From: a virus
Taxonomy: Duplodnaviria > Heunggongvirae > Uroviricota > Caudoviricetes
Virus record (IMG/VR): IMGVR_UViG_2529293213_000037
Length of the DNA: 10,347 nucleotides
Reading direction: 5' to 3' (one strand)
Under the pieces are notes generated by a model. It was not told where the DNA came from. It saw only the letters and a list, made by a program, of their open reading frames with translations, and made no database searches. Shown here piece by piece: positions 499 to 10,347 of this stretch. Within the stretch, counting starts at the first letter, position 1, and every line of letters begins with the position of its first letter. The translations under genes were made by a program, and so were the position numbers.

Positions 499-683
499 TG
501 TTTATATCCTTTTTGCAGCAGGTCCAGACGAGCCAGCATTGAAGGAATGCATACTTCATTTAACAGGTCCTGCTCGAGTTTTCTCTGCTTAATGGCGTCT
601 TCAATAAATGTTTTGTCTCCAGTGATAACGCCAATTTCGAAACGAAGTTCAGACGTGCTGGCATTACATGATAACTTTTCCAT
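495..683 (-). CDS. dicB: DicB-like cell-division inhibitor (62 aa, MinC-activating family)
   Basis: Internal ATG at 683-681 with GAGGA 7 nt upstream gives a 62-aa product (MEKLSCNASTSELRFEIGVITGDKTFIEDAIKQRKLEQDLLNEVCIPSMLARLDLLQKGYKQ) that matches DicB as I recall it (FEIGV, FxEDAIxKRK, SMLARL). The longer 98-aa ORF in the track has no RBS and is probably an upstream extension artefact. It lies about 180 bp downstream of the DicF-like RNA. Confidence 0.7.
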   Translation of the reverse strand: MEKLSCNASTSELRFEIGVITGDKTFIEDAIKQRKLEQDLLNEVCIPSMLARLDLLQKGYKQ

Positions 684-863
684 TATCGCGTCCTCAACAA
701 TGAATTTTGTGATGCGGTGCCTGGTGCCTCCAGGTGACGTTAACCAGTTAACAATTAACGCCGGATACAGAGCATTCTCGTTACTCAGCAAATGACCGCT
801 TTACCGATTTAACTGTTCCGCGTGCGCTGAGCCGCATTCACCGCATCACAAAATTCACTTTTA

Positions 864-920
864 AAAAAGGGCGGCAGAGCAGTTACGGAGTAAAACTGAT
901 ACCGCCAAATGTCACCAGAA
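864..920 (-). ncRNA. dicF: DicF-like small RNA (ftsZ-targeting sRNA of the dicB operon), including its intrinsic terminator
   Basis: The minus-strand sequence AUUCUGGUGACAUUUGGCGGUAUCAGUUUUACUCCGUAACUGCUCUGCCGCCCUUUUUU matches my recollection of DicF with about 3 mismatches. It ends in a GC-rich stem plus U-tract. Ends are approximate (+/- 3 nt). Confidence 0.7.
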
Positions 921-1256
921 TATTGATAACAGAGGGCGTTGCAGCGGGGTTGTCACTTAAGCGTATGGTCAACCTGACAACCCGGTGTCCTCAACGGGGA
1001 AAGAATAACCCCGCCATACTTACCGCCGCGCCATTTCGCGGATTGCCACAACCGGAAGCGCACGGTCGAATTAAATTTAACGACGGCTCTAAGGGAGAAG
1101 GACTTCGCCGTGCACTTTCGTGTTATGCCCTGACTTTTCAGGGATATATCCTTTCAGTAAACTGTCAGTGCCGGATTCTTATCTGTGTCCGGCGCACGAC
1201 CACACGTAGCAGCGTGTTGGTCTCCATTTTTAATTCAGCCCTTAATGGAGGATAAA

Positions 1257-1442
1257 ATGCCAAACAAACCATGCCCTGCCTGTAACGCTCTTTCTGGCTT
1301 TTTAGAGAAGGGCGGTTATTACATTTTTAACTGTCCAGAACATGTTGAATTTCATATATCAAAACTTGACAGTATCATTACAAAGCCAAATCAGTATCAG
1401 TCTGATTTACTGAATAAAGAGTTAAACGCCGCCCGAGATTAA
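1257..1442 (+). CDS. Small zinc-ribbon-like protein (61 aa; CxxC ... CxxH), encoded antisense within the dicB-type operon
   Basis: ATG at 1257 preceded by GGAGGA (4-nt spacer). Product MPNKPCPACNALSGFLEKGGYYIFNCPEHVEFHISKLDSIITKPNQYQSDLLNKELNAARD has a CPAC ... CPEH pattern typical of a zinc ribbon. Not recognised as a named gene. Confidence 0.4.
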   Translation: MPNKPCPACNALSGFLEKGGYYIFNCPEHVEFHISKLDSIITKPNQYQSDLLNKELNAARD

Positions 1443-1479
1443 GGGCGTAGTGGCCCATTAAAAATATTGCAAAGACCAA

Positions 1480-1632
1480 CTATTGTTGAACTGGATTAAA
1501 CCAGTAATTCTCTATTGCTCTTATTGTTACCATCGGATGATTGCCGGGGGTTATTTTAAGTTCGGGAGGAAAAGGCTCTCCATCAGCAGCCATCATTGAG
1601 TATGTGAAATCCGCCGACGCAGTCCCTTTCAT
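1480..1632 (-). CDS. Either a 50-aa translationally coupled small ORF or the C-terminal part of the frameshifted upstream gene
   Basis: ATG at 1632-1630 overlaps the upstream stop (ATGA). The same frame is open upstream back to about 1838 without an ATG, which suggests a fusion with 1629-2018 after a -1 shift. Product ...MKGTASADFTYSMMAADGEPFPPELKITPGNHPMVTIRAIENYWFNPVQQ. Confidence 0.35.
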   Translation of the reverse strand: MKGTASADFTYSMMAADGEPFPPELKITPGNHPMVTIRAIENYWFNPVQQ

Positions 1633-2018
1633 GATAATTCCGAATTTTTCAAGTAATGAGAGCAGTTCCGGTAATCCTGTGTCATCTGAATAACTTTCCT
1701 CATAGAAAGAAGCGATTGCCGCAGGAGATGACAGTTCTCGCTCTGCAATTTTTTTGTAGTTTTCCAGAATTCTTTTTTTGAATACTTTTCCTCGACATGA
1801 AAACCCATCACCGAGGCAATCCGCTTTGCAGTTTCTTCAGTATTCTGGTTGTTTGTTACCGAAACAGAGTACAATCCGGTAAACGCATCGCGCACATTAC
1901 GAGCCATATTATCAATGTATTTCTTCGTTGCAGATTCTAATTCAACTTCGTTCAGACGTTGGTGAAGTGCATGTGCTGCAATTTCCTGGATTTCTTTTAG
2001 TAAATCTTTAAATTCCAT
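1629..2018 (-). CDS. Hypothetical early-left operon protein at the ydfC position; annotated frame of 129 aa, but probably frameshifted at an A7 tract
   Basis: ATG at 2018 with GGAG 7 nt upstream. N-terminal part (MEFKDLLKEIQEIAAHALHQRLNEVELESATKKYIDNMARNVRDAFTGLYSV...) looks like real coding. After the A7 run (minus strand of 1773-1779) the annotated frame uses rare codons (AGG, CGG x2) while the -1 frame stays open to 1480 and reads more protein-like. Confidence 0.55.
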   Translation of the reverse strand: MEFKDLLKEIQEIAAHALHQRLNEVELESATKKYIDNMARNVRDAFTGLYSVSVTNNQNTEETAKRIASVMGFHVEEKYSKKEFWKTTKKLQSENCHLLRQSLLSMRKVIQMTQDYRNCSHYLKNSELS

Positions 2019-2029
2019 CTTTAACTCCG

Positions 2030-2158
2030 TTAGTCGTTAGATTTTGCCGAACTGGAAAGCGCCTGTTTAAACTCACTGAAGCTGAGAGCTTCCTCGCCTT
2101 CGGCAAGGCCTTCGAAGTATTCTTCGTAAGCCTTTTCCATGATTGTGTCGAAATCCAT
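2030..2158 (-). CDS. ydfB: YdfB-like small protein (42 aa)
   Basis: ATG at 2158-2156, one nt after the ydfA-like stop. Product MDFDTIMEKAYEEYFEGLAEGEEALSFSEFKQALSSSAKSND. Below the 60-aa cut-off of the ORF track. Size (42 aa) and position match YdfB of the Qin dicB operon. Confidence 0.5.
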   Translation of the reverse strand: MDFDTIMEKAYEEYFEGLAEGEEALSFSEFKQALSSSAKSND

Positions 2159-2159
2159 A

Positions 2160-2315
2160 TCACTCACCTGAGTTTCTTTCCAGCCAGCGACGGGCACCAT
2201 TTTCGGTTTTAAACGTTTTGCTTTTGGTATACGTCATCGCGGTGAATGTACCGTCCTGGTTGGGAAACACGCCGTACACCAGAGATTCGTTGTTGCCAAG
2301 ATCGATAGTATCCAT
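2160..2315 (-). CDS. ydfA: YdfA-like small protein (51 aa)
   Basis: ATG at 2315-2313 with GAGGT 4 nt upstream. Product MDTIDLGNNESLVYGVFPNQDGTFTAMTYTKSKTFKTENGARRWLERNSGE. First gene after the second operator/promoter. Size and position match YdfA. Confidence 0.6.
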   Translation of the reverse strand: MDTIDLGNNESLVYGVFPNQDGTFTAMTYTKSKTFKTENGARRWLERNSGE

Positions 2316-2501
2316 GTTGACCTCATTTCCCCTTAACGCCGGGTAGCGGAACAAAAACCTGCTGCATAGTTATTAAAGTTGAACCCTGCCGTCATGTTCA
2401 TACGCCTCGGGCTGGCTACTTACCCCCTGACCACTGCTTGGTAACTCGAAGTATTGCCCGGCGTTCTGTGGGGCGGGGTGGGTGGTTGGTGTATGTAATC
2501 T

Positions 2502-2540
2502 ACAATAAAAAACTGTTTTTGTGTCAACAGTTTTTAATTG
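2502..2540. promoter_or_regulatory. Operator-like palindrome (second copy) overlapping a consensus -35 TTGACA on the minus strand; candidate repressor-controlled promoter of the dicB-type operon
   Basis: ACAATAAAAAACTGTT-(spacer)-AACAGTTTTTAATTG. The left arm is identical over 16 nt to the site at 3537-3552. The revcomp of 2522-2527 is TTGACA. It lies just downstream of the ParE terminator and about 190 nt upstream of the ydfA-like gene. Confidence 0.5.
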
Positions 2541-2550
2541 TTGTTTTGGG

Positions 2551-2574
2551 CAAAAAAATCCCTCGAAAGAGGGA
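2551..2574 (-). terminator. Rho-independent terminator ending the repressor-antitoxin-toxin operon
   Basis: Minus-strand hairpin UCCCUC-UUUC-GAGGGA followed by U7 (revcomp of A2552-A2558), about 20 nt after the ParE stop. Confidence 0.55.
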
Positions 2575-2592
2575 GTATGAAAATTGTTCAAC

Positions 2593-2880
2593 TCAGATAG
2601 AGAAGGGAAATTGTCGCCGAGAATGTGTCACGCTTACAATCTCAATGCTTGAAGCAGCTACTCTGTACAGGATTATGTAGTTAGGGTGGGTCACGATCTC
2701 TCTCAATCCAGAAACCCGTTCGCTTGGTGGATATAAGTACGGATGCTCAGATAGAGGTAATACCGATGTTTCAATGCGTATTTTTAGTCTACGTGCTGCC
2801 GGTGGGTTCTCCTTGGCGATGTAAGTTATGATCTGGCGCAAATCATCGCGAGCAGACGGTAGCCATAAAATGGGTAACAT
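2593..2880 (-). CDS. parE: ParE/RelE-superfamily toxin (95 aa), type II toxin-antitoxin system
   Basis: Product MLPILWLPSARDDLRQIITYIAKENPPAARRLKIRIETSVLPLSEHPYLYPPSERVSGLREIVTHPNYIILYRVAASSIEIVSVTHSRRQFP... has the ParE-family hallmarks. Its start overlaps the stop of the upstream antitoxin gene by 1 nt (TAATG). Confidence 0.8.
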   Translation of the reverse strand: MLPILWLPSARDDLRQIITYIAKENPPAARRLKIRIETSVLPLSEHPYLYPPSERVSGLREIVTHPNYIILYRVAASSIEIVSVTHSRRQFPFSI

Positions 2881-3071
2881 TACTCGCTCTTGTTAGTTAC
2901 AGCAATTTGAGCAATAAGATTTTCCATTTCAGCCATTACCTCGTCATGTGGAATTGCGGGGCGAGTGTCTGCAAGGCTTGACGTTACTTTAGTGCGCAAC
3001 CATTCGTTGTAACTGTTTTCTTGTTCGGTAGTTTCGAATTCTGAAACTATCGGAGAAAGGGCTGTACCCAT
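2880..3071 (-). CDS. paaA: Antitoxin (63 aa) of the three-component ParE system, PaaA-like
   Basis: Product MGTALSPIVSEFETTEQENSYNEWLRTKVTSSLADTRPAIPHDEVMAEMENLIAQIAVTNKSE. GAGGAG Shine-Dalgarno 7 nt upstream. Sits 27 nt after the repressor stop and is directly coupled to the ParE gene. Size and sequence resemble the PaaA2 antitoxin from memory. Confidence 0.7.
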   Translation of the reverse strand: MGTALSPIVSEFETTEQENSYNEWLRTKVTSSLADTRPAIPHDEVMAEMENLIAQIAVTNKSE

Positions 3072-3098
3072 GGCATAACTCCTCTTCTTGTACTGTGG

Positions 3099-3500
3099 TC
3101 ACGCCCGGCGGCTTTTTTGTGCCGCCAGCCACCTAGCAATGGTTTCTTCCATTGATTTTTTCTTGTCTTTGATTTCTTGAAGCATTTTTTCTTGGTCTTC
3201 CTCAGGAAACGCACTAAAAGCTTGGAGCAGTTCGCGTTGGCGAGGACCAATTTTCATCGTGTCAGGGGTGAAAATTTGCTCACACTCTTCAGGAGGCAAT
3301 AAAAACCAATGCAATGGATGCCCTGAAACCTCAACCAGTTTATCCAAACTTGAGGCTTTAGGTGTAGCCTTACCGCTGACCCATTGTTGAACAGTTTGTT
3401 GTGTCACACCAATTCTACGGGCAAGCTCAGCCTGGCTCCATCCAGTTTCCTGAAGAAGCTTGCTGATTCTGTACATAGATACTTCTAGGGCGCTCATCAT
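3099..3500 (-). CDS. XRE-family HTH repressor (DicA/RacR/PaaR-like, 133 aa); probable prophage immunity repressor and regulator of the TA operon
   Basis: N-terminal HTH (QAELARRIGVTQQTVQQWVSG) and a C-terminal domain resembling DicA. Divergent from the Cro-like gene. No Shine-Dalgarno before the ATG, and a TAAAAT -10-like hexamer sits about 7 nt upstream, so it may be leaderless. Confidence 0.8.
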   Translation of the reverse strand: MMSALEVSMYRISKLLQETGWSQAELARRIGVTQQTVQQWVSGKATPKASSLDKLVEVSGHPLHWFLLPPEECEQIFTPDTMKIGPRQRELLQAFSAFPEEDQEKMLQEIKDKKKSMEETIARWLAAQKSRRA

Positions 3501-3608
3501 TATTCAATTTTACAGGTAAATACTGTTAAAAGCATCACAATAAAAAACTGTTGATTGCATACAGTTTTTTATTGTAGGTTTTGCTTATAGTTTTTAGAGG
3601 AGGGCAAA
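3501..3608. promoter_or_regulatory. Divergent promoter/operator region between the repressor and the Cro-like gene; perfect 14-bp inverted repeat at 3538-3574
   Basis: CAATAAAAAACTGT-(9 bp)-ACAGTTTTTTATTG is a perfect palindrome. TATAGT -10-like hexamer at 3586-3591 on the plus strand and TAAAAT on the minus strand. Confidence 0.6.
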
Positions 3609-3881
3609 ATGCTAGATAGCACTCGCGAAAAAATTAGGCAGAAATACACTCAGGCTGAAATAGGTCGTTATATGGGGGTCGCTCAACAGACTGTTTGGCA
3701 ATGGTTTAGCTTTGGCGTTCCCCCAAAGCAGGTAATTCCGTTATGCCAACTAATGAAGTGGGAAGTTACCCCGCATGAAATCCGCCCAGATATTTATCCT
3801 AACCCAACCGACGGTTTACCTGTTGGATGTAAGGTTAACACATCAAATGCGCCGGAGTTGATTCATGAAAATCAAGCATGA
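3609..3881 (+). CDS. ydaS: Cro/CI-type HTH protein, YdaS-like (90 aa)
   Basis: GAGGAGGG Shine-Dalgarno. HTH (QAEIGRYMGVAQQTVWQWF) followed by the WEVTPHEIRPDIYPNPTDG motif typical of the YdaS family. Overlaps the downstream gene by 17 nt. Confidence 0.75.
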   Translation: MLDSTREKIRQKYTQAEIGRYMGVAQQTVWQWFSFGVPPKQVIPLCQLMKWEVTPHEIRPDIYPNPTDGLPVGCKVNTSNAPELIHENQA

Positions 3882-4290
3882 ACACATCCGCATGGCGATG
3901 AATGCCTGGGCGCATCCGGACGGCGAAAAAGTACCGGCTGCGAAAATTACCAAAGCGTATTTCGAGCTGGGAATGACGTTCCCGGAACTGTATGACGACA
4001 GCCATCCGGAAGCCATGGCTCGCAATACTCAGAAAATTTTCCGCTGGGTGGAGAAAGACACTCCTGATGCGGTTAAAAAAATTCAGGCGTTGTTACCAGC
4101 GATCGAAAAAGCGATGCCGCCTCCGCTGGTGGCCCGAATGCGCAGCCACAGTTCCGCTTATTTTCGGGAGTTGGTAGAGACGAAGGAACGGCTGGTGAAA
4201 GATATTGATGATTTCGTTGCATCAGCGATCGTTCTGTTCGATCAGATGAATCGTGGTGGCCCGGCAGGAAACACTCTGGCTGTGCATTAA
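3865..4290 (+). CDS. ydaT: YdaT-like protein (141 aa), the partner of YdaS in Rac-type prophages
   Basis: Starts MKIKHEHI..., with GGAG 7 nt upstream. Co-oriented with and overlapping the ydaS-like gene. Family assignment is from memory. Confidence 0.65.
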   Translation: MKIKHEHIRMAMNAWAHPDGEKVPAAKITKAYFELGMTFPELYDDSHPEAMARNTQKIFRWVEKDTPDAVKKIQALLPAIEKAMPPPLVARMRSHSSAYFRELVETKERLVKDIDDFVASAIVLFDQMNRGGPAGNTLAVH

Positions 4291-4303
4291 TTGGGTAATA
4301 AAT

Positions 4304-4813
4304 ATGAGTAATGACAAAAAATTGACACTGAGCGTTTACGAAAACAGTCCGCACATCTGGCGTGGCGGTTTATCTGATGTGGAGCTGGCAGAGTGGTTGA
4401 TACATAAAGCTAATGCGCTGCTCTGGCGTTTGTCAGCCAGAGAACAGCGCAAGGAAACCAGAATAAAGCTGGCTGATGCAGAAGCGTGTGCCGGGCTTAT
4501 TGAGGATTATACAAATCTTGGTATTTCTTCAGCAGAGAGTGATCCCATTCAGCCTCTGAGCAGGGAGTCAATCCAGCACGCTGGTTGTATGGCACATCTT
4601 GTAACTGCTCGTCAACATGAGGTGGGTATTGGATCACTTCCGGCGGGATATTCGCTGATTCCAGAGCTGGTTGAAGCAAGAAAATCAGTTCAGAAAAAGA
4701 GAGATGACGCACTTCAATTATTGAGAGAGCACTATGGCGCGATACCAGAATGCGAACAGCGTCGATACCCTGAAGGTTATGAATGGATGCAGTCTCTTTT
4801 TGAAGTTCGCTAA
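4304..4813 (+). CDS. Hypothetical phage early protein (169 aa)
   Basis: Long ORF co-oriented with the operon, product MSNDKKLTLSVYENSPHIWRGGLSDVELAEWLIHKANALLWRL.... Weak Shine-Dalgarno. The track places the start at a GTG at 4253 that overlaps the ydaT-like gene; the ATG at 4304 is preferred. Confidence 0.55.
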   Translation: MSNDKKLTLSVYENSPHIWRGGLSDVELAEWLIHKANALLWRLSAREQRKETRIKLADAEACAGLIEDYTNLGISSAESDPIQPLSRESIQHAGCMAHLVTARQHEVGIGSLPAGYSLIPELVEARKSVQKKRDDALQLLREHYGAIPECEQRRYPEGYEWMQSLFEVR

Positions 4814-5030
4814 TCAATATGTCGAGACGAAGGTATGTTTCGGCGCGCAGCCAGGCTCTGTAATCCGGGAGCATTTCGGGGCTGTTACACCAGCGGTTTG
4901 TTGCTGCAACATTTAATACATGAGCCTGATAAAGGCTTTTCAAAAAATACATGTCGAACCTCCTCTGGTTCTGTCGATTGGGAACCACAGATTATATCCG
5001 GAGGAAGGTTCGGCACCAGATGAGGTAGCC

Positions 5031-7667: not shown

Positions 7668-7682
7668 TTGCCGGAGGCGCTT

Positions 7683-8096
7683 ATGGCAAAAGTATTTACA
7701 CAGGAAGAGCGGGAAAAAATTAAAGGGCAGGTTGTTGAGCTAGTACGCCGGAGTGGGCGCGAGACGTTACGGCAACTGGAAGCCAAGACAGGTGCGACAA
7801 GATATCTGATGAGCGTTCTTGCCAGAGAGCTGGTTGCCAGTGGCGATGTATACAACTCTGGTTACGGGTTATTCCCATCTGAACAGGCTCGTAAGGACTG
7901 GCAAAACGCCCGCAAAAAACTATCGAGGGCAAAACTGAAGAAACCGGTTGTGGTTGATCCTGACCTTATCTGGTCATTACCAGACGGAGAAATACGCCGC
8001 TATGACAGGCAATTGAACATAATTTGTAGTGAGTGCCGTAACAGTGAAGTGATGCAGCGAGTTTTGATATTTTACACAGGAGTAATGATGGAATAG
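7683..8096 (+). CDS. Hypothetical phage protein (137 aa)
   Basis: ATG at 7683 with GGAGG 5 nt upstream (the track starts at a TTG at 7668). Product MAKVFTQEEREKIKGQVVELVRRSGRETLRQLEAKTGATRYLMSVLARELVASGD.... Confidence 0.6.
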   Translation: MAKVFTQEEREKIKGQVVELVRRSGRETLRQLEAKTGATRYLMSVLARELVASGDVYNSGYGLFPSEQARKDWQNARKKLSRAKLKKPVVVDPDLIWSLPDGEIRRYDRQLNIICSECRNSEVMQRVLIFYTGVMME

Positions 8097-8447
8097 TGAA
8101 AATAACATGAAACCTTTGGATTCTGGTGTTTCAGTGGATGGGAAAAGAGCAGATACATAGAAAATGAATAGCAATAATTCACAGTCTGGATGTTGTTTGT
8201 ATGCTTATAAAATGATCCTAGTATGCATTGCCGGAGTTGAATCAGCTCCAATGAAGAAACTGAGAGGAGTATTTAGAAGATAGCTAAATGGATGTAATTA
8301 TTAGTATCTAAAAAATAGTATTTTTGAAATGGGTCTAAGAACACAACAATGTACAAATGAGAAGTTATCTTTTAATATGTTCAAAGACCCATTAGGATTG
8401 ATATCAGTTATGTTAGCTAGATTGATAAAGTGATTACATATTTTCTG

Positions 8448-9221
8448 TTATATGCTGAAATGAATAATGCTATTCCAGAGTGCAGCAGAGAAAGTCTCCT
8501 GATGATTGAGCTCTGGAAATTGTACAATAGAAAAATTACTGTATTTTTCTGTCAAAATATTTCTCAAAACAGATTCCGCTTTGATGGCTTCAGGATATAA
8601 AGATGCGGAGTAATCAAGGCTAAGATTTCCGTTAAGCAAGCATATACTTTTAGTGTGCTTTGATTCTGATATATCATCTTTAATTATCTTGATGATTCTT
8701 TCATTCTGCCATAGAAGTGATGGTGCAGATATATAATAATAGTTAAAGCATGAATTATTTTTTAAGCAATCAAGCACAAAAATAGCACCTAGCGAGTGCC
8801 CCCATATACCGATTCTGGAACTGTTCGGAGCAATAGTACTAACCCATGGCATGATCTGAGTTAGTAATAATTCTCGGAAAGACTGGCTTCCTCCACCAGT
8901 AAAGTAGATCCATGCTGGTTTAGAGTTATCAACAATAGCATTTTCACCATCAGGAGTATAATCGTAAGCACGGCGATGAATGCTAAGGTTATTCCAAGAT
9001 TCATAACCAAGTGTAACTAACACTGGTGGATTGGGTAGTGCATCAATAACAGGCAGAATATCAGAAATGTAATTGTTGGCACTATTCCCATCAAGTATAT
9101 AAAGAGTTGCATTATTTTTTTTAATGTTTTTTGGAGTAAAAATACATATTTTATATTTGGTGTCATGGTTAATTGAGTTAAATATGCGTGTTTGACAATG
9201 AATGTCCATATGTTTAGTCAT
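8448..9221 (-). CDS. Alpha/beta-hydrolase, putative esterase (esterase D / Fes / IroE-like family), 257 aa; AT-rich cargo gene
   Basis: GGGGAG Shine-Dalgarno 5 nt upstream of the ATG. Nucleophile elbow GHSLG (IWGHSLGAIF), an LDGNS motif near the N-terminus and a C-terminal NHQET candidate catalytic His. No obvious signal peptide. Roughly 30-35% GC versus about 50% in flanking phage genes. Convergent with the phage operon. Confidence 0.8.
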   Translation of the reverse strand: MTKHMDIHCQTRIFNSINHDTKYKICIFTPKNIKKNNATLYILDGNSANNYISDILPVIDALPNPPVLVTLGYESWNNLSIHRRAYDYTPDGENAIVDNSKPAWIYFTGGGSQSFRELLLTQIMPWVSTIAPNSSRIGIWGHSLGAIFVLDCLKNNSCFNYYYISAPSLLWQNERIIKIIKDDISESKHTKSICLLNGNLSLDYSASLYPEAIKAESVLRNILTEKYSNFSIVQFPELNHQETFSAALWNSIIHFSI

Positions 9222-9825
9222 GCGTTCTCCCCATGAGCATTAAAGGATGCTTAAGATATGCTATGTCACTGATAAAAAATTTGTTGTGTGTGTTTAGTTA
9301 TTTTATCTACCTCCATTATGATTTAAGACTGATATATGTTATCAGCAAAGGTACATCGTTATTATTTTACCTGTCAATACATTTGATATTGATTATCGTT
9401 TACATCGCTTGCTTAGGAAATTGAAGGCAGGTAACTATCATGTCAATGAACTAACCCACAGTCTAACGTACTTCTTTCCCCAATCACCAACAACCAAATT
9501 CCTGTTATCACCACTGGGATTTTGGCGCAACTTCATGGTGCAGAGGTAAATAGCATCAAGCAAAATCTCTTTTTCCGTTGTTGTCCTTATGGGACGTCTG
9601 TCTTTCTGACCGATTTCATATTGGCGAGGTAATGGGAAGTTAAGTAGAATAGCTGCGGGTGCTTGAGGCTATCTGCCTCGGGCATGAACACCAACGGCAG
9701 ATAGAGAAAAGCCCCAGTTAACATTACGCGTCCTGCAAGACGCCTAACATTAATCTGAGGCTCAATCTATGAACGGCAAATCTAGGTTAGCCTCTTACGT
9801 GCCGAAAGGCAAGGAGAAGCAGGCT

Positions 9826-9981
9826 ATGAAGCAGCAAAAGGCGATGTTAATCGCCCTGATCGTCATCTGTTTAACCGTCATAGTGACGGCACTGGTAACG
9901 AGGAAAGACCTCTGCGAGGTACGAGTCCGAACCGGCCAGACGGAGGTCGCTGTCTTCACAGCTTACGAACCTGAGGAGTAA
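9826..9981 (+). CDS. hokD: Hok/Gef-family type I toxin (51 aa), closest to HokD (RelF)
   Basis: Product MKQQKAMLIALIVICLTVIVTALVTRKDLCEVRVRTGQTEVAVFTAYEPEE, about one substitution from HokD as I recall it. AAGGAG upstream. The track ORF (from 9769) is an in-frame N-terminal extension. No relBE-like ORFs upstream. Confidence 0.8.
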   Translation: MKQQKAMLIALIVICLTVIVTALVTRKDLCEVRVRTGQTEVAVFTAYEPEE

Positions 9982-10050
9982 GAGACCTGGCGGGGGAGAA
10001 ATCCCTCGCCACCTCTGATGAATCAGGCATCCTCAACGCACCCGCACTTA

Positions 10051-10074
10051 ACCCGCTTCGGCGGGTTTTGTTTG
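10051..10074 (+). terminator. Rho-independent terminator downstream of the hok-like gene
   Basis: ACCCGC-UUCG-GCGGGU hairpin (UUCG tetraloop) followed by UUUUGUUU. Confidence 0.6.
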
Positions 10075-10255
10075 CGCGCTGAATGCGCAGGGTGAAAAAT
10101 AACCATATATTTGATTATATACACAACAAAAAATAAAAGTCATTGTACCTGCACATTAAATAATCAAATATACGGCGTGAAATAAATATTTTTCAGATTA
10201 ATATTTTTGTCTCTATGTGGATATAACCGTTTGTACTTATAAACTCGGAGGCATC

Positions 10256-10347
10256 GTGGAAAAAATAAAGAAACTATTTAGTTGCAAATACGCAGTCATA
10301 CGTCGTGATGACCTGTCAGTTATAGTCGAAATGGATTACTTCCCTGA
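10256..10347 (+). CDS. Possible 5' end of a gene running off the right edge (GTG start)
   Basis: GGAGG 4 nt upstream of the GTG at 10256. Open frame VEKIKKLFSCKYAVIRRDDLSVIVEMDYFP... to the end of the window. Preceded by an AT-rich promoter-like region. Confidence 0.3.
   Translation, partial: MEKIKKLFSCKYAVIRRDDLSVIVEMDYFP

Follow-up and report, generated by a model that had tools for sequence, protein, structure and literature searches.

Siderophore esterases have been described in several bacteria. IroE carries an N-terminal anchor or signal, is located in the periplasm and is encoded within a five-gene siderophore locus, and BesA, a member of the same family without an export signal, stays in the cytoplasm and acts on the iron-loaded trilactone. 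PfeE and Cee are periplasmic ferric-enterobactin esterases that allow a bacterium to exploit enterobactin from other producers (PMC8001512). Here, we describe a relative of these enzymes in a lambda-like prophage of enterohaemorrhagic Escherichia coli (EHEC). The window, that is, the whole stretch of 10,347 nucleotides that was analysed (IMG/VR record IMGVR_UViG_2529293213_000037, Caudoviricetes), contains at 8448-9221, on the minus strand, a gene for an IroE-like siderophore-esterase homologue of 257 amino acids without a signal peptide, as identified by phmmer, profile, predicted structure, substitution pattern and the annotation of strain Sakai. The gene is ECs1077 of the lambda-like Sakai prophage Sp4, where it is annotated as "hypothetical protein" (in RefSeq, WP_000160654, "alpha/beta hydrolase"). 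A search of the literature library returned no mention of ECs1077, WP_000160654 or NP_309104, and nothing relevant on IroE or siderophore esterases in connection with prophages or O157. On balance, we favour the reading that the gene is lysogenic-conversion cargo and codes for a siderophore trilactone esterase that would work in the cytoplasm under the control of iron.

Membership in the IroE/PfeE/BesA family of siderophore esterases, a branch of the alpha/beta-hydrolases that also includes EstB, is secure, as sequence, profile and predicted fold agree. A phmmer search of the Protein Data Bank (PDB) with the single sequence retrieved IroE (E 5e-26, residues 8-253), the Bacillus esterase BES (9e-13) and PfeE (1.5e-11), together with fungal siderophore esterases, and with a profile of 16 sequences (the window protein and 15 relatives) the values became 4e-95 for IroE, 2.5e-74 for PfeE and 3.6e-58 for BES. 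The structure predicted by AlphaFold2 from the single sequence was unusable (predicted local distance difference test, pLDDT, 47), and a model based on the family alignment was used instead (pLDDT 88.7; predicted template modelling score, pTM, 0.90). When this model was compared with the PDB by Foldseek, the best 30 matches were all siderophore esterases, and IroE (2gzs) was matched with E 1.4e-19 and template modelling (TM) scores of 0.78/0.80, the single-domain alpha/beta-hydrolase fold being superposable.

Within this family, the protein stands far from its nearest neighbours. A search of 5.8 billion clustered proteins gave no close relatives except E. coli alleles with at least 83% identity, the next relative being at 31%, and an exhaustive HMMER scan of 1.8 billion representatives gathered 998 relatives, none of them above 33% identity outside the E. 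coli group. The closest named relatives are "alpha/beta hydrolases" of Pantoea, and in PHROGs the only match is phrog_8493, a family of unknown function. The neighbourhood was read for one homologue from outside E. coli (P0020, 31% identity), which adjoins EntE/EntB/EntA-like genes, two TonB-dependent receptors and a FecCD-type transporter. An earlier note on this stretch, made from the sequence alone, had called the esterase an orphan; this label has to be dropped, as the protein falls clearly within a described family with its catalytic and family-invariant residues intact. Of the functions that the same note had listed as options, a siderophore-modifying enzyme is the one with direct homology evidence.

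As judged from the alignment, the catalytic and family-invariant residues of IroE are kept in the window protein. The positions that are invariant among the 16 sequences are D44-G-N, R84, D87 and T89 (R84-x-x-D-x-T), G141-H-S143, G145, S168 and H240. The GHSLG nucleophile elbow (residues 141-145, 8787-8801 on the minus strand, with the Ser143 codon at 8793-8795) aligns with GHSYG of IroE, and Ser143 and His240 (codon 8502-8504, minus strand) align with Ser189 and the catalytic His287, respectively. Asp44, in the LDGN motif (codon 9090-9092), and Arg84, in the RxYDYTP motif (codon 8970-8972), both on the minus strand, align with residues 50 and 90 of the IroE chain, which correspond to Asp90 and Arg130 once the offset of 40 is applied (fixed by Ser149 = Ser189). 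These two residues of IroE were reportedly found by Larsen and colleagues in 2006 to be needed for activity. The catalytic dyad of IroE is Ser189/His287 (PMC10515146). If the window protein works with a dyad of the same type, His240 would activate Ser143 for attack on the ester bonds of a catecholate trilactone siderophore. By family membership, we infer that the candidate substrates would be enterobactin or a related xenosiderophore (salmochelin, bacillibactin), free or iron-loaded, and that opening of the ring would lead to the release of iron or the recycling of the scaffold.

The N-terminus sets the protein apart from most members of the family. A hydrophobic segment is present there in 90 of 108 full-length relatives (83%), whereas in the window protein the highest mean Kyte-Doolittle value over 11 residues within the first 35 is 0.35 and no hydrophobic segment is found. 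The residues that precede LDGN number 42, against a median of 80 in the relatives, and an equally short N-terminus occurs in 11 of the 108. What is missing is the export signal of about 40 residues that most relatives carry; the whole crystallised domain of IroE is covered by the window protein and only the export signal and linker are gone. Upstream of the ATG, several stop codons close the frame, and a search there for a longer N-terminus or a concealed signal was negative. Having lost the export signal or anchor, the esterase should remain in the cytoplasm and work there, in the compartment where Fes and BesA are active.

The same missing segment might be taken as a sign of decay, the gene then being the functionless remnant of a 5′-truncated, periplasmic IroE-like gene that has hitch-hiked with the prophage. 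Besides the loss of a signal that 83% of the relatives carry, a remnant of another gene, of the ORF6N type, adjoins the esterase, and insertion sequences (IS) lie in or near it in some strains (for instance, an IS3-family element upstream of the gene in pig strain PE164). We nevertheless regard decay as very unlikely. The truncation removes signal and linker only, and members of the family without a signal exist, such as BesA and the short relatives mentioned above. Additionally, a second allele with 90.7% identity has been found in the same slot, within a prophage with a different replication module from a pig isolate. The two alleles differ by 72 substitutions (41.5 synonymous and 30.5 non-synonymous), with a ratio of non-synonymous to synonymous rates (dN/dS) of 0.165 and a dS of 0.31. 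This low ratio, the full 257-codon frame that is unbroken in both alleles, the 92% identity kept over the 260 nt upstream of the gene despite that dS, and an identical ribosome-binding site (a Shine-Dalgarno sequence, GGGGAG, at 9227-9232 on the minus strand, 5 nt before the ATG) argue for purifying selection on the protein and its control region.

The frame is also intact in nearly all carriers. Of the 5426 complete E. coli genomes, 471 carry the gene, and most of these carriers are EHEC. Identity is at least 99% in 458 of them and 90-95% in the other 13, and at least 80% of the length of the gene is covered in 467 of the 471. None of the sequenced free phages in the phage collection has it.

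Some features of the upstream region suggest how the gene may be expressed. A promoter-like site (ATAACA-16-CATAAT, 9315-9342, minus strand) lies in a stretch that does not differ between the two alleles. It is a match to the consensus only, and sites of this kind are no more numerous than in shuffled sequences. As a promoter of its own, directed against the phage early operon, it would allow expression in the lysogen. Since the family is iron-related, Fur boxes were searched, and two candidate sites were found 110-180 nt upstream of the ATG. The first, at 9330-9344, is the palindrome TGATAACATATATCA, which agrees with the 7-1-7 consensus at 12 of 15 positions, overlaps the -35 hexamer and is perfectly conserved in the 90.7% allele. 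The second, at 9384-9403, agrees at 15 of 19 positions with GATAATGATAATCATTATC (9385-9403) and at 13 of 15 with the 7-1-7 consensus (9384-9398), and has one substitution in that allele. At these thresholds, they are the only Fur-like matches in the window. None lies in the body of the gene or in its 3′ flank, which are equally AT-rich, and in about 10 kb taken from the alternative cassettes of other phages only three weaker sites occur (12/15 or 14/19). The arrangement is suggestive of a promoter that would probably be repressed by Fur and come on under iron limitation. A candidate terminator lies at the other end of the gene, where a long hairpin (8328-8393, minus strand; inverted repeat I4; folding energy -23.6 kcal/mol, z -3.47) begins about 55 nt past the stop codon and has a U-rich tract behind it. 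The hairpin consists of a 16-nt inverted repeat around a structured 34-nt loop and is larger than the usual intrinsic terminator; its arms are kept in the 90.7% allele, where the loop has an insertion of 12 nt.

Published expression data may bear on this control. On contact of EHEC with HEp-2 cells, Z1341 of prophage CP-933M was raised 2.5-fold along with ent, fep, chu and exbB (PMC2654852), and Z1341 and Z1787 (CP-933N) were the only prophage genes of unknown function to be induced with ent/fep/chu (PMC2654852, Table 1). Z1342 is listed as a Hok/Gef-family protein and, being the adjacent Hok-family gene, makes Z1341 probably the gene just before hok, which would be the esterase gene ECs1077.

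Several points weigh against an iron-regulated siderophore esterase. The Pfam model PF00756 ('Putative esterase') reaches 17 bits against a gathering threshold of 22 (E 0.005) and covers residues 81-161 only, which would reflect the right superfamily and a lineage too divergent for the model, and NCBIfam gives no match to the protein. As identity is 20-27% to any characterised esterase and at most 33% to any protein from outside E. coli, the substrate could differ. No siderophore receptor, transporter or synthesis genes lie near the esterase, the neighbours of which are phage replication genes and hok/sok. The Fur-like sites are consensus matches in AT-rich DNA, and no site fits the 19-bp Fur consensus with three mismatches or fewer; the best Fur-like score was reached by 2 of 500 dinucleotide-preserving shuffles of the upstream region, a figure that gives no clean probability because the sites were sought on account of the homology. 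In O26:H11 strain 11368, IS629/IS1203 interrupts the gene (the IS loci in and around the island are L012 988-2201, L013 1869-3082 and L001 9509-11821), which makes it dispensable there. The slot in which the gene lies, described below, is filled mostly by defence genes in related phages. Finally, E. coli already has Fes, and the likely benefit to the host would consequently be extra capacity, the hydrolysis of glucosylated or foreign trilactones, on which Fes works poorly, or the recycling of apo-siderophores.

Some of these points would equally suit an active cytoplasmic serine esterase or lactonase of the same fold that works on another substrate as a metabolic or fitness moron, for instance, on a siderophore other than a catecholate, on a siderophore-antibiotic or microcin conjugate, or on an ester from the host or the diet. 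Such an enzyme would fit the distance to the nearest relatives, the weak generic Pfam match and a solitary gene without a transporter partner, and the family already covers both catecholate trilactones and fungal hydroxamate fusarinines. We consider it rather unlikely all the same, because IroE, a catecholate trilactone hydrolase, is the nearest relative of solved structure in both sequence and fold, every family-invariant residue is kept, the P0020 homologue sits in a catecholate siderophore cluster, and Fur-like sites lie upstream of the gene.

The composition of the region marks the esterase gene as foreign. Every 300-nt window within 8101-9450 has a GC content of 0.29-0.39, against 0.45-0.60 in the replication genes and 0.46-0.53 in hok, which delimits an AT-rich island (about 29-39% GC) at 8097-9450. 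This is the deepest dip in the window: GC is 33.6% over 8100-9480 and 47.5% in the remainder, a gap of about 10 binomial standard errors, and GC at third codon positions is 0.28 in the esterase gene and 0.42-0.67 in the six flanking genes. The only other sizeable open reading frame (ORF) within the island, 9233-9424 on the plus strand, was not accepted as a partner gene, since a 1-nt indel breaks its frame in the 90.7% allele. A search for direct repeats at the island edges returned only short pairs at chance level, the best being of 13 nt with an 85% match at 8175/9452, and nothing convincing. A stretch of 1.7 kb is 100% identical to prophages of E. coli O157:H7, O26, O103, O145 and some pig and fish isolates. 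Atypical composition, a predicted promoter and terminator, and variable presence between conserved phage genes give the cassette the features of a prophage moron.

The earlier note had described most of this correctly, and all its descriptive claims stand: a fall in GC over some 1.4 kb with respect to the flanks, a single minus-strand gene convergent with the early operon, its ribosome-binding site and GHSLG motif, and the lack of both a signal peptide and a partner gene. Its view of the gene as horizontally acquired single-gene prophage cargo is likewise borne out by the composition and by the boundaries of the cassette given below. Its reading as a whole is partly supported, the orphan label and the defence idea being the parts that are not.

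Low GC and the absence of a Sec signal also call to mind the type III secretion effectors of EHEC, many of the AT-rich, signal-less, prophage-borne genes of these strains being effectors, and the carriers listed are EHEC-type strains positive for the locus of enterocyte effacement. Effector loci of EHEC lie, however, beyond the tail genes and not in the early/nin region, where this gene sits. Its product has the fold of a bacterial metabolic enzyme and belongs to a family with substrates of bacterial type, and the listed carriers also include non-O157 pig and fish isolates. A role as an effector is, in our opinion, extremely improbable.

The homology with related phages defines the boundaries of the insertion. 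Similarity to HannyBb, mEp460 and Tritos ends at 8059-8087 and resumes at 9579-9602, so that the exchangeable cassette (8075-9602, with edges at about 8075-8090 and 9580-9602) is slightly wider than the 8100-9480 of the earlier note. On its left lies the DUF977 gene (7668-8096, plus strand; PF06163, 4e-27), the last of the replication-module operon, also called 'LygF' or 'Ren-like exclusion', and on its right lie the sok RNA and the mok/hok toxin (9657-9981, plus strand; Rfam RF01794, 105.6 bits; Pfam HOK_GEF, 1.5e-22). In O157 strain PV15-279, the DUF977 gene is interrupted by ISEc8. At the right edge of the slot, a remnant of 28 codons (9483-9566, plus strand; a RefSeq pseudogene) resembles the N-terminus of an ORF6N/antirepressor-type protein (ORF6N E 0.0039, below the Pfam threshold), and in the prophage with the 90.7% allele the stretch 9475-9608 is replaced by unrelated sequence. 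The fragment would be the relic of an earlier occupant or neighbour.

Diverse cassettes are found at this position in related phages. The occupant is PD-T7-1 in mEp460 (E 4e-157), an FRG-domain PDC-S15 candidate in Tritos, IetA/IetS in vB_EcoS-683R6, a BstA-like protein in vB_EcoS-666R9, HigBA with a gene of unknown function in PhiR5_2, QueH with a methyltransferase fragment in HannyBb and ordinary small phage genes in Rac-SA53. Some of these cassettes lie between DUF977/LygF and the nin genes instead of hok, and several of the alternative occupants are likewise single, minus-strand, AT-rich genes. The slot spans 8075-9602 in the window and, in the loci compared, 1890-4176 (L003), 1593-3771 (L004), 571-4572 (L007), 523-4097 (L009) and 600-2551 (L006). 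The unannotated occupants at 633-1307 of L006 (minus strand) and at 685-1188 and 2813-3178 of L009 have no match in PADLOC. The comparison across related prophages that the earlier note had in mind thus reveals a variable slot with known defence genes, and lambdoid (pro)phages have at the DUF977-hok/nin junction a hotspot for cargo in which such genes abound. The case that the note had named as refuting, a well-characterised housekeeping family kept at this locus in all relatives, applies only by half: this is indeed a well-characterised family, but relatives do not keep the gene at this position.

Such a position invites the idea of anti-phage defence, put forward in the earlier note, or of superinfection exclusion. 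The esterase would then protect the lysogen against other phages, either directly through some substrate or indirectly by a change in iron status and, with it, in those TonB-dependent receptors under Fur control that serve phages and colicins for entry. PD-T7-1, FRG/PDC-S15, IetA/IetS, BstA-like and HigBA cassettes share the slot, several of them with the strand and composition of the esterase gene; PD-T7-1 was discovered through an experimental selection, and defence systems that have escaped recognition reside in prophage hotspots. This is, however, an argument from position alone. None of the 5027 models of PADLOC-DB v2 matches the protein at E<=1, which has strong homology to a family of metabolic enzymes and an intact active site, the gene has no sensor or effector partner, and the slot also takes cargo other than defence genes, for instance, QueH in HannyBb. 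Defence is, for these reasons, improbable to us. Slightly more doubtful still is a particular form of this idea, in which a siderophore-esterase fold would have been turned, within the lambdoid defence hotspot, into a one-gene factor that senses iron and serves against phages or in exclusion and that might act by reprogramming Fur-controlled TonB-dependent receptors or by hydrolysing an ester that phages require. If true, it would tie iron metabolism to prophage-encoded immunity.

Other features of the window lie outside the cassette. A scan for tRNA genes found none in the window, and the only Rfam matches are sok and the DicF antisense RNA (RF00039, 76.9 bits; 869-920, minus strand), which adjoins a dicB-like region of the prophage. 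The immunity region is of the Rac/Qin type and not of the lambda cI/cro/cII type: a helix-turn-helix repressor (3099-3500, minus strand) is followed by YdaS-like (in the Cro position) and YdaT-like proteins (3609-4290, plus strand). Just upstream of the repressor gene, a ParE-family toxin (PF05016) and a PaaA2-type antitoxin (PF21217) form a type II toxin-antitoxin pair within the immunity region (2593-3071, minus strand). Between ydaT and the replication gene, a minus-strand ORF at 4497-4988 (163 amino acids; annotated as a 151-residue 'ECs1072 family phage-associated protein') lies in antisense orientation, has no match in Pfam and may be another moron. A second AT-rich stretch (10075-10235) starts directly after the hok terminator (10050-10067), contains two promoter-like sites on the minus strand (10/12 and 9/12) and is followed by a small ORF that starts near 10257.

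To our knowledge, EHEC O157:H7 and the major non-O157 EHEC serogroups are without the iroA salmochelin system. If our reading of the gene as a cytoplasmic siderophore esterase is true, it would be an accessory factor for iron acquisition or xenosiderophore piracy that has so far gone unrecognised, that phages spread among EHEC and that about 9% of complete E. coli genomes contain, and a temperate phage would be the carrier of a siderophore-processing enzyme. The DUF977-hok junction of lambdoid prophages, as a hotspot for cargo and defence genes, is worth mining.

Among the known systems, IroE, the salmochelin/enterobactin trilactone hydrolase of the iroA locus in E. coli CFT073 and Salmonella (PDB 2gzr/2gzs), is the best match by sequence, profile and fold. 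Both proteins consist of one alpha/beta-hydrolase domain without the N-terminal domain of Fes and have the dyad, LDGN and RxYDYTP in common; in contrast to IroE proper, however, the window protein (about 27% identity) has no periplasmic signal or anchor and is encoded by a solitary prophage gene with no iroBCDEN-type locus around it. In its proposed mode of action, the window protein would most resemble BesA/BES, the bacillibactin esterase of Bacillus (PDB 2qm0), which belongs to the same family (about 20% identity); BesA is, however, a chromosomal component of the Fur-regulated bacillibactin system of a Gram-positive, whereas the window gene is prophage-borne. PfeE of Pseudomonas aeruginosa and Cee of Campylobacter share fold and family with the window protein, which differs in that these two are periplasmic and encoded beside a receptor gene under a two-component system (PMC8001512). 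Fes and IroD hydrolyse catecholate trilactones in the cytoplasm, as is proposed for the window protein, but are distant structural relatives (for Fes, E about 5e-10 and TMq 0.68). Fes, with about 17% identity, differs in having an extra N-terminal domain, a Ser-His-Glu triad (PMC10515146) and a place in the core ent/fep cluster. The PD-T7-1, IetAS, FRG/PDC-S15, BstA-like and HigBA cassettes occupy the same slot and are often minus-strand, AT-rich and self-contained, although they code for defence or toxin-antitoxin proteins without sequence or fold kinship to a metabolic-type esterase. The enzyme family and its cytoplasmic variants were, thus, already known; what is new is a temperate EHEC phage as the carrier, the deep divergence of the protein (at most 33% identity) and the loss of the export signal with respect to its nearest relatives.

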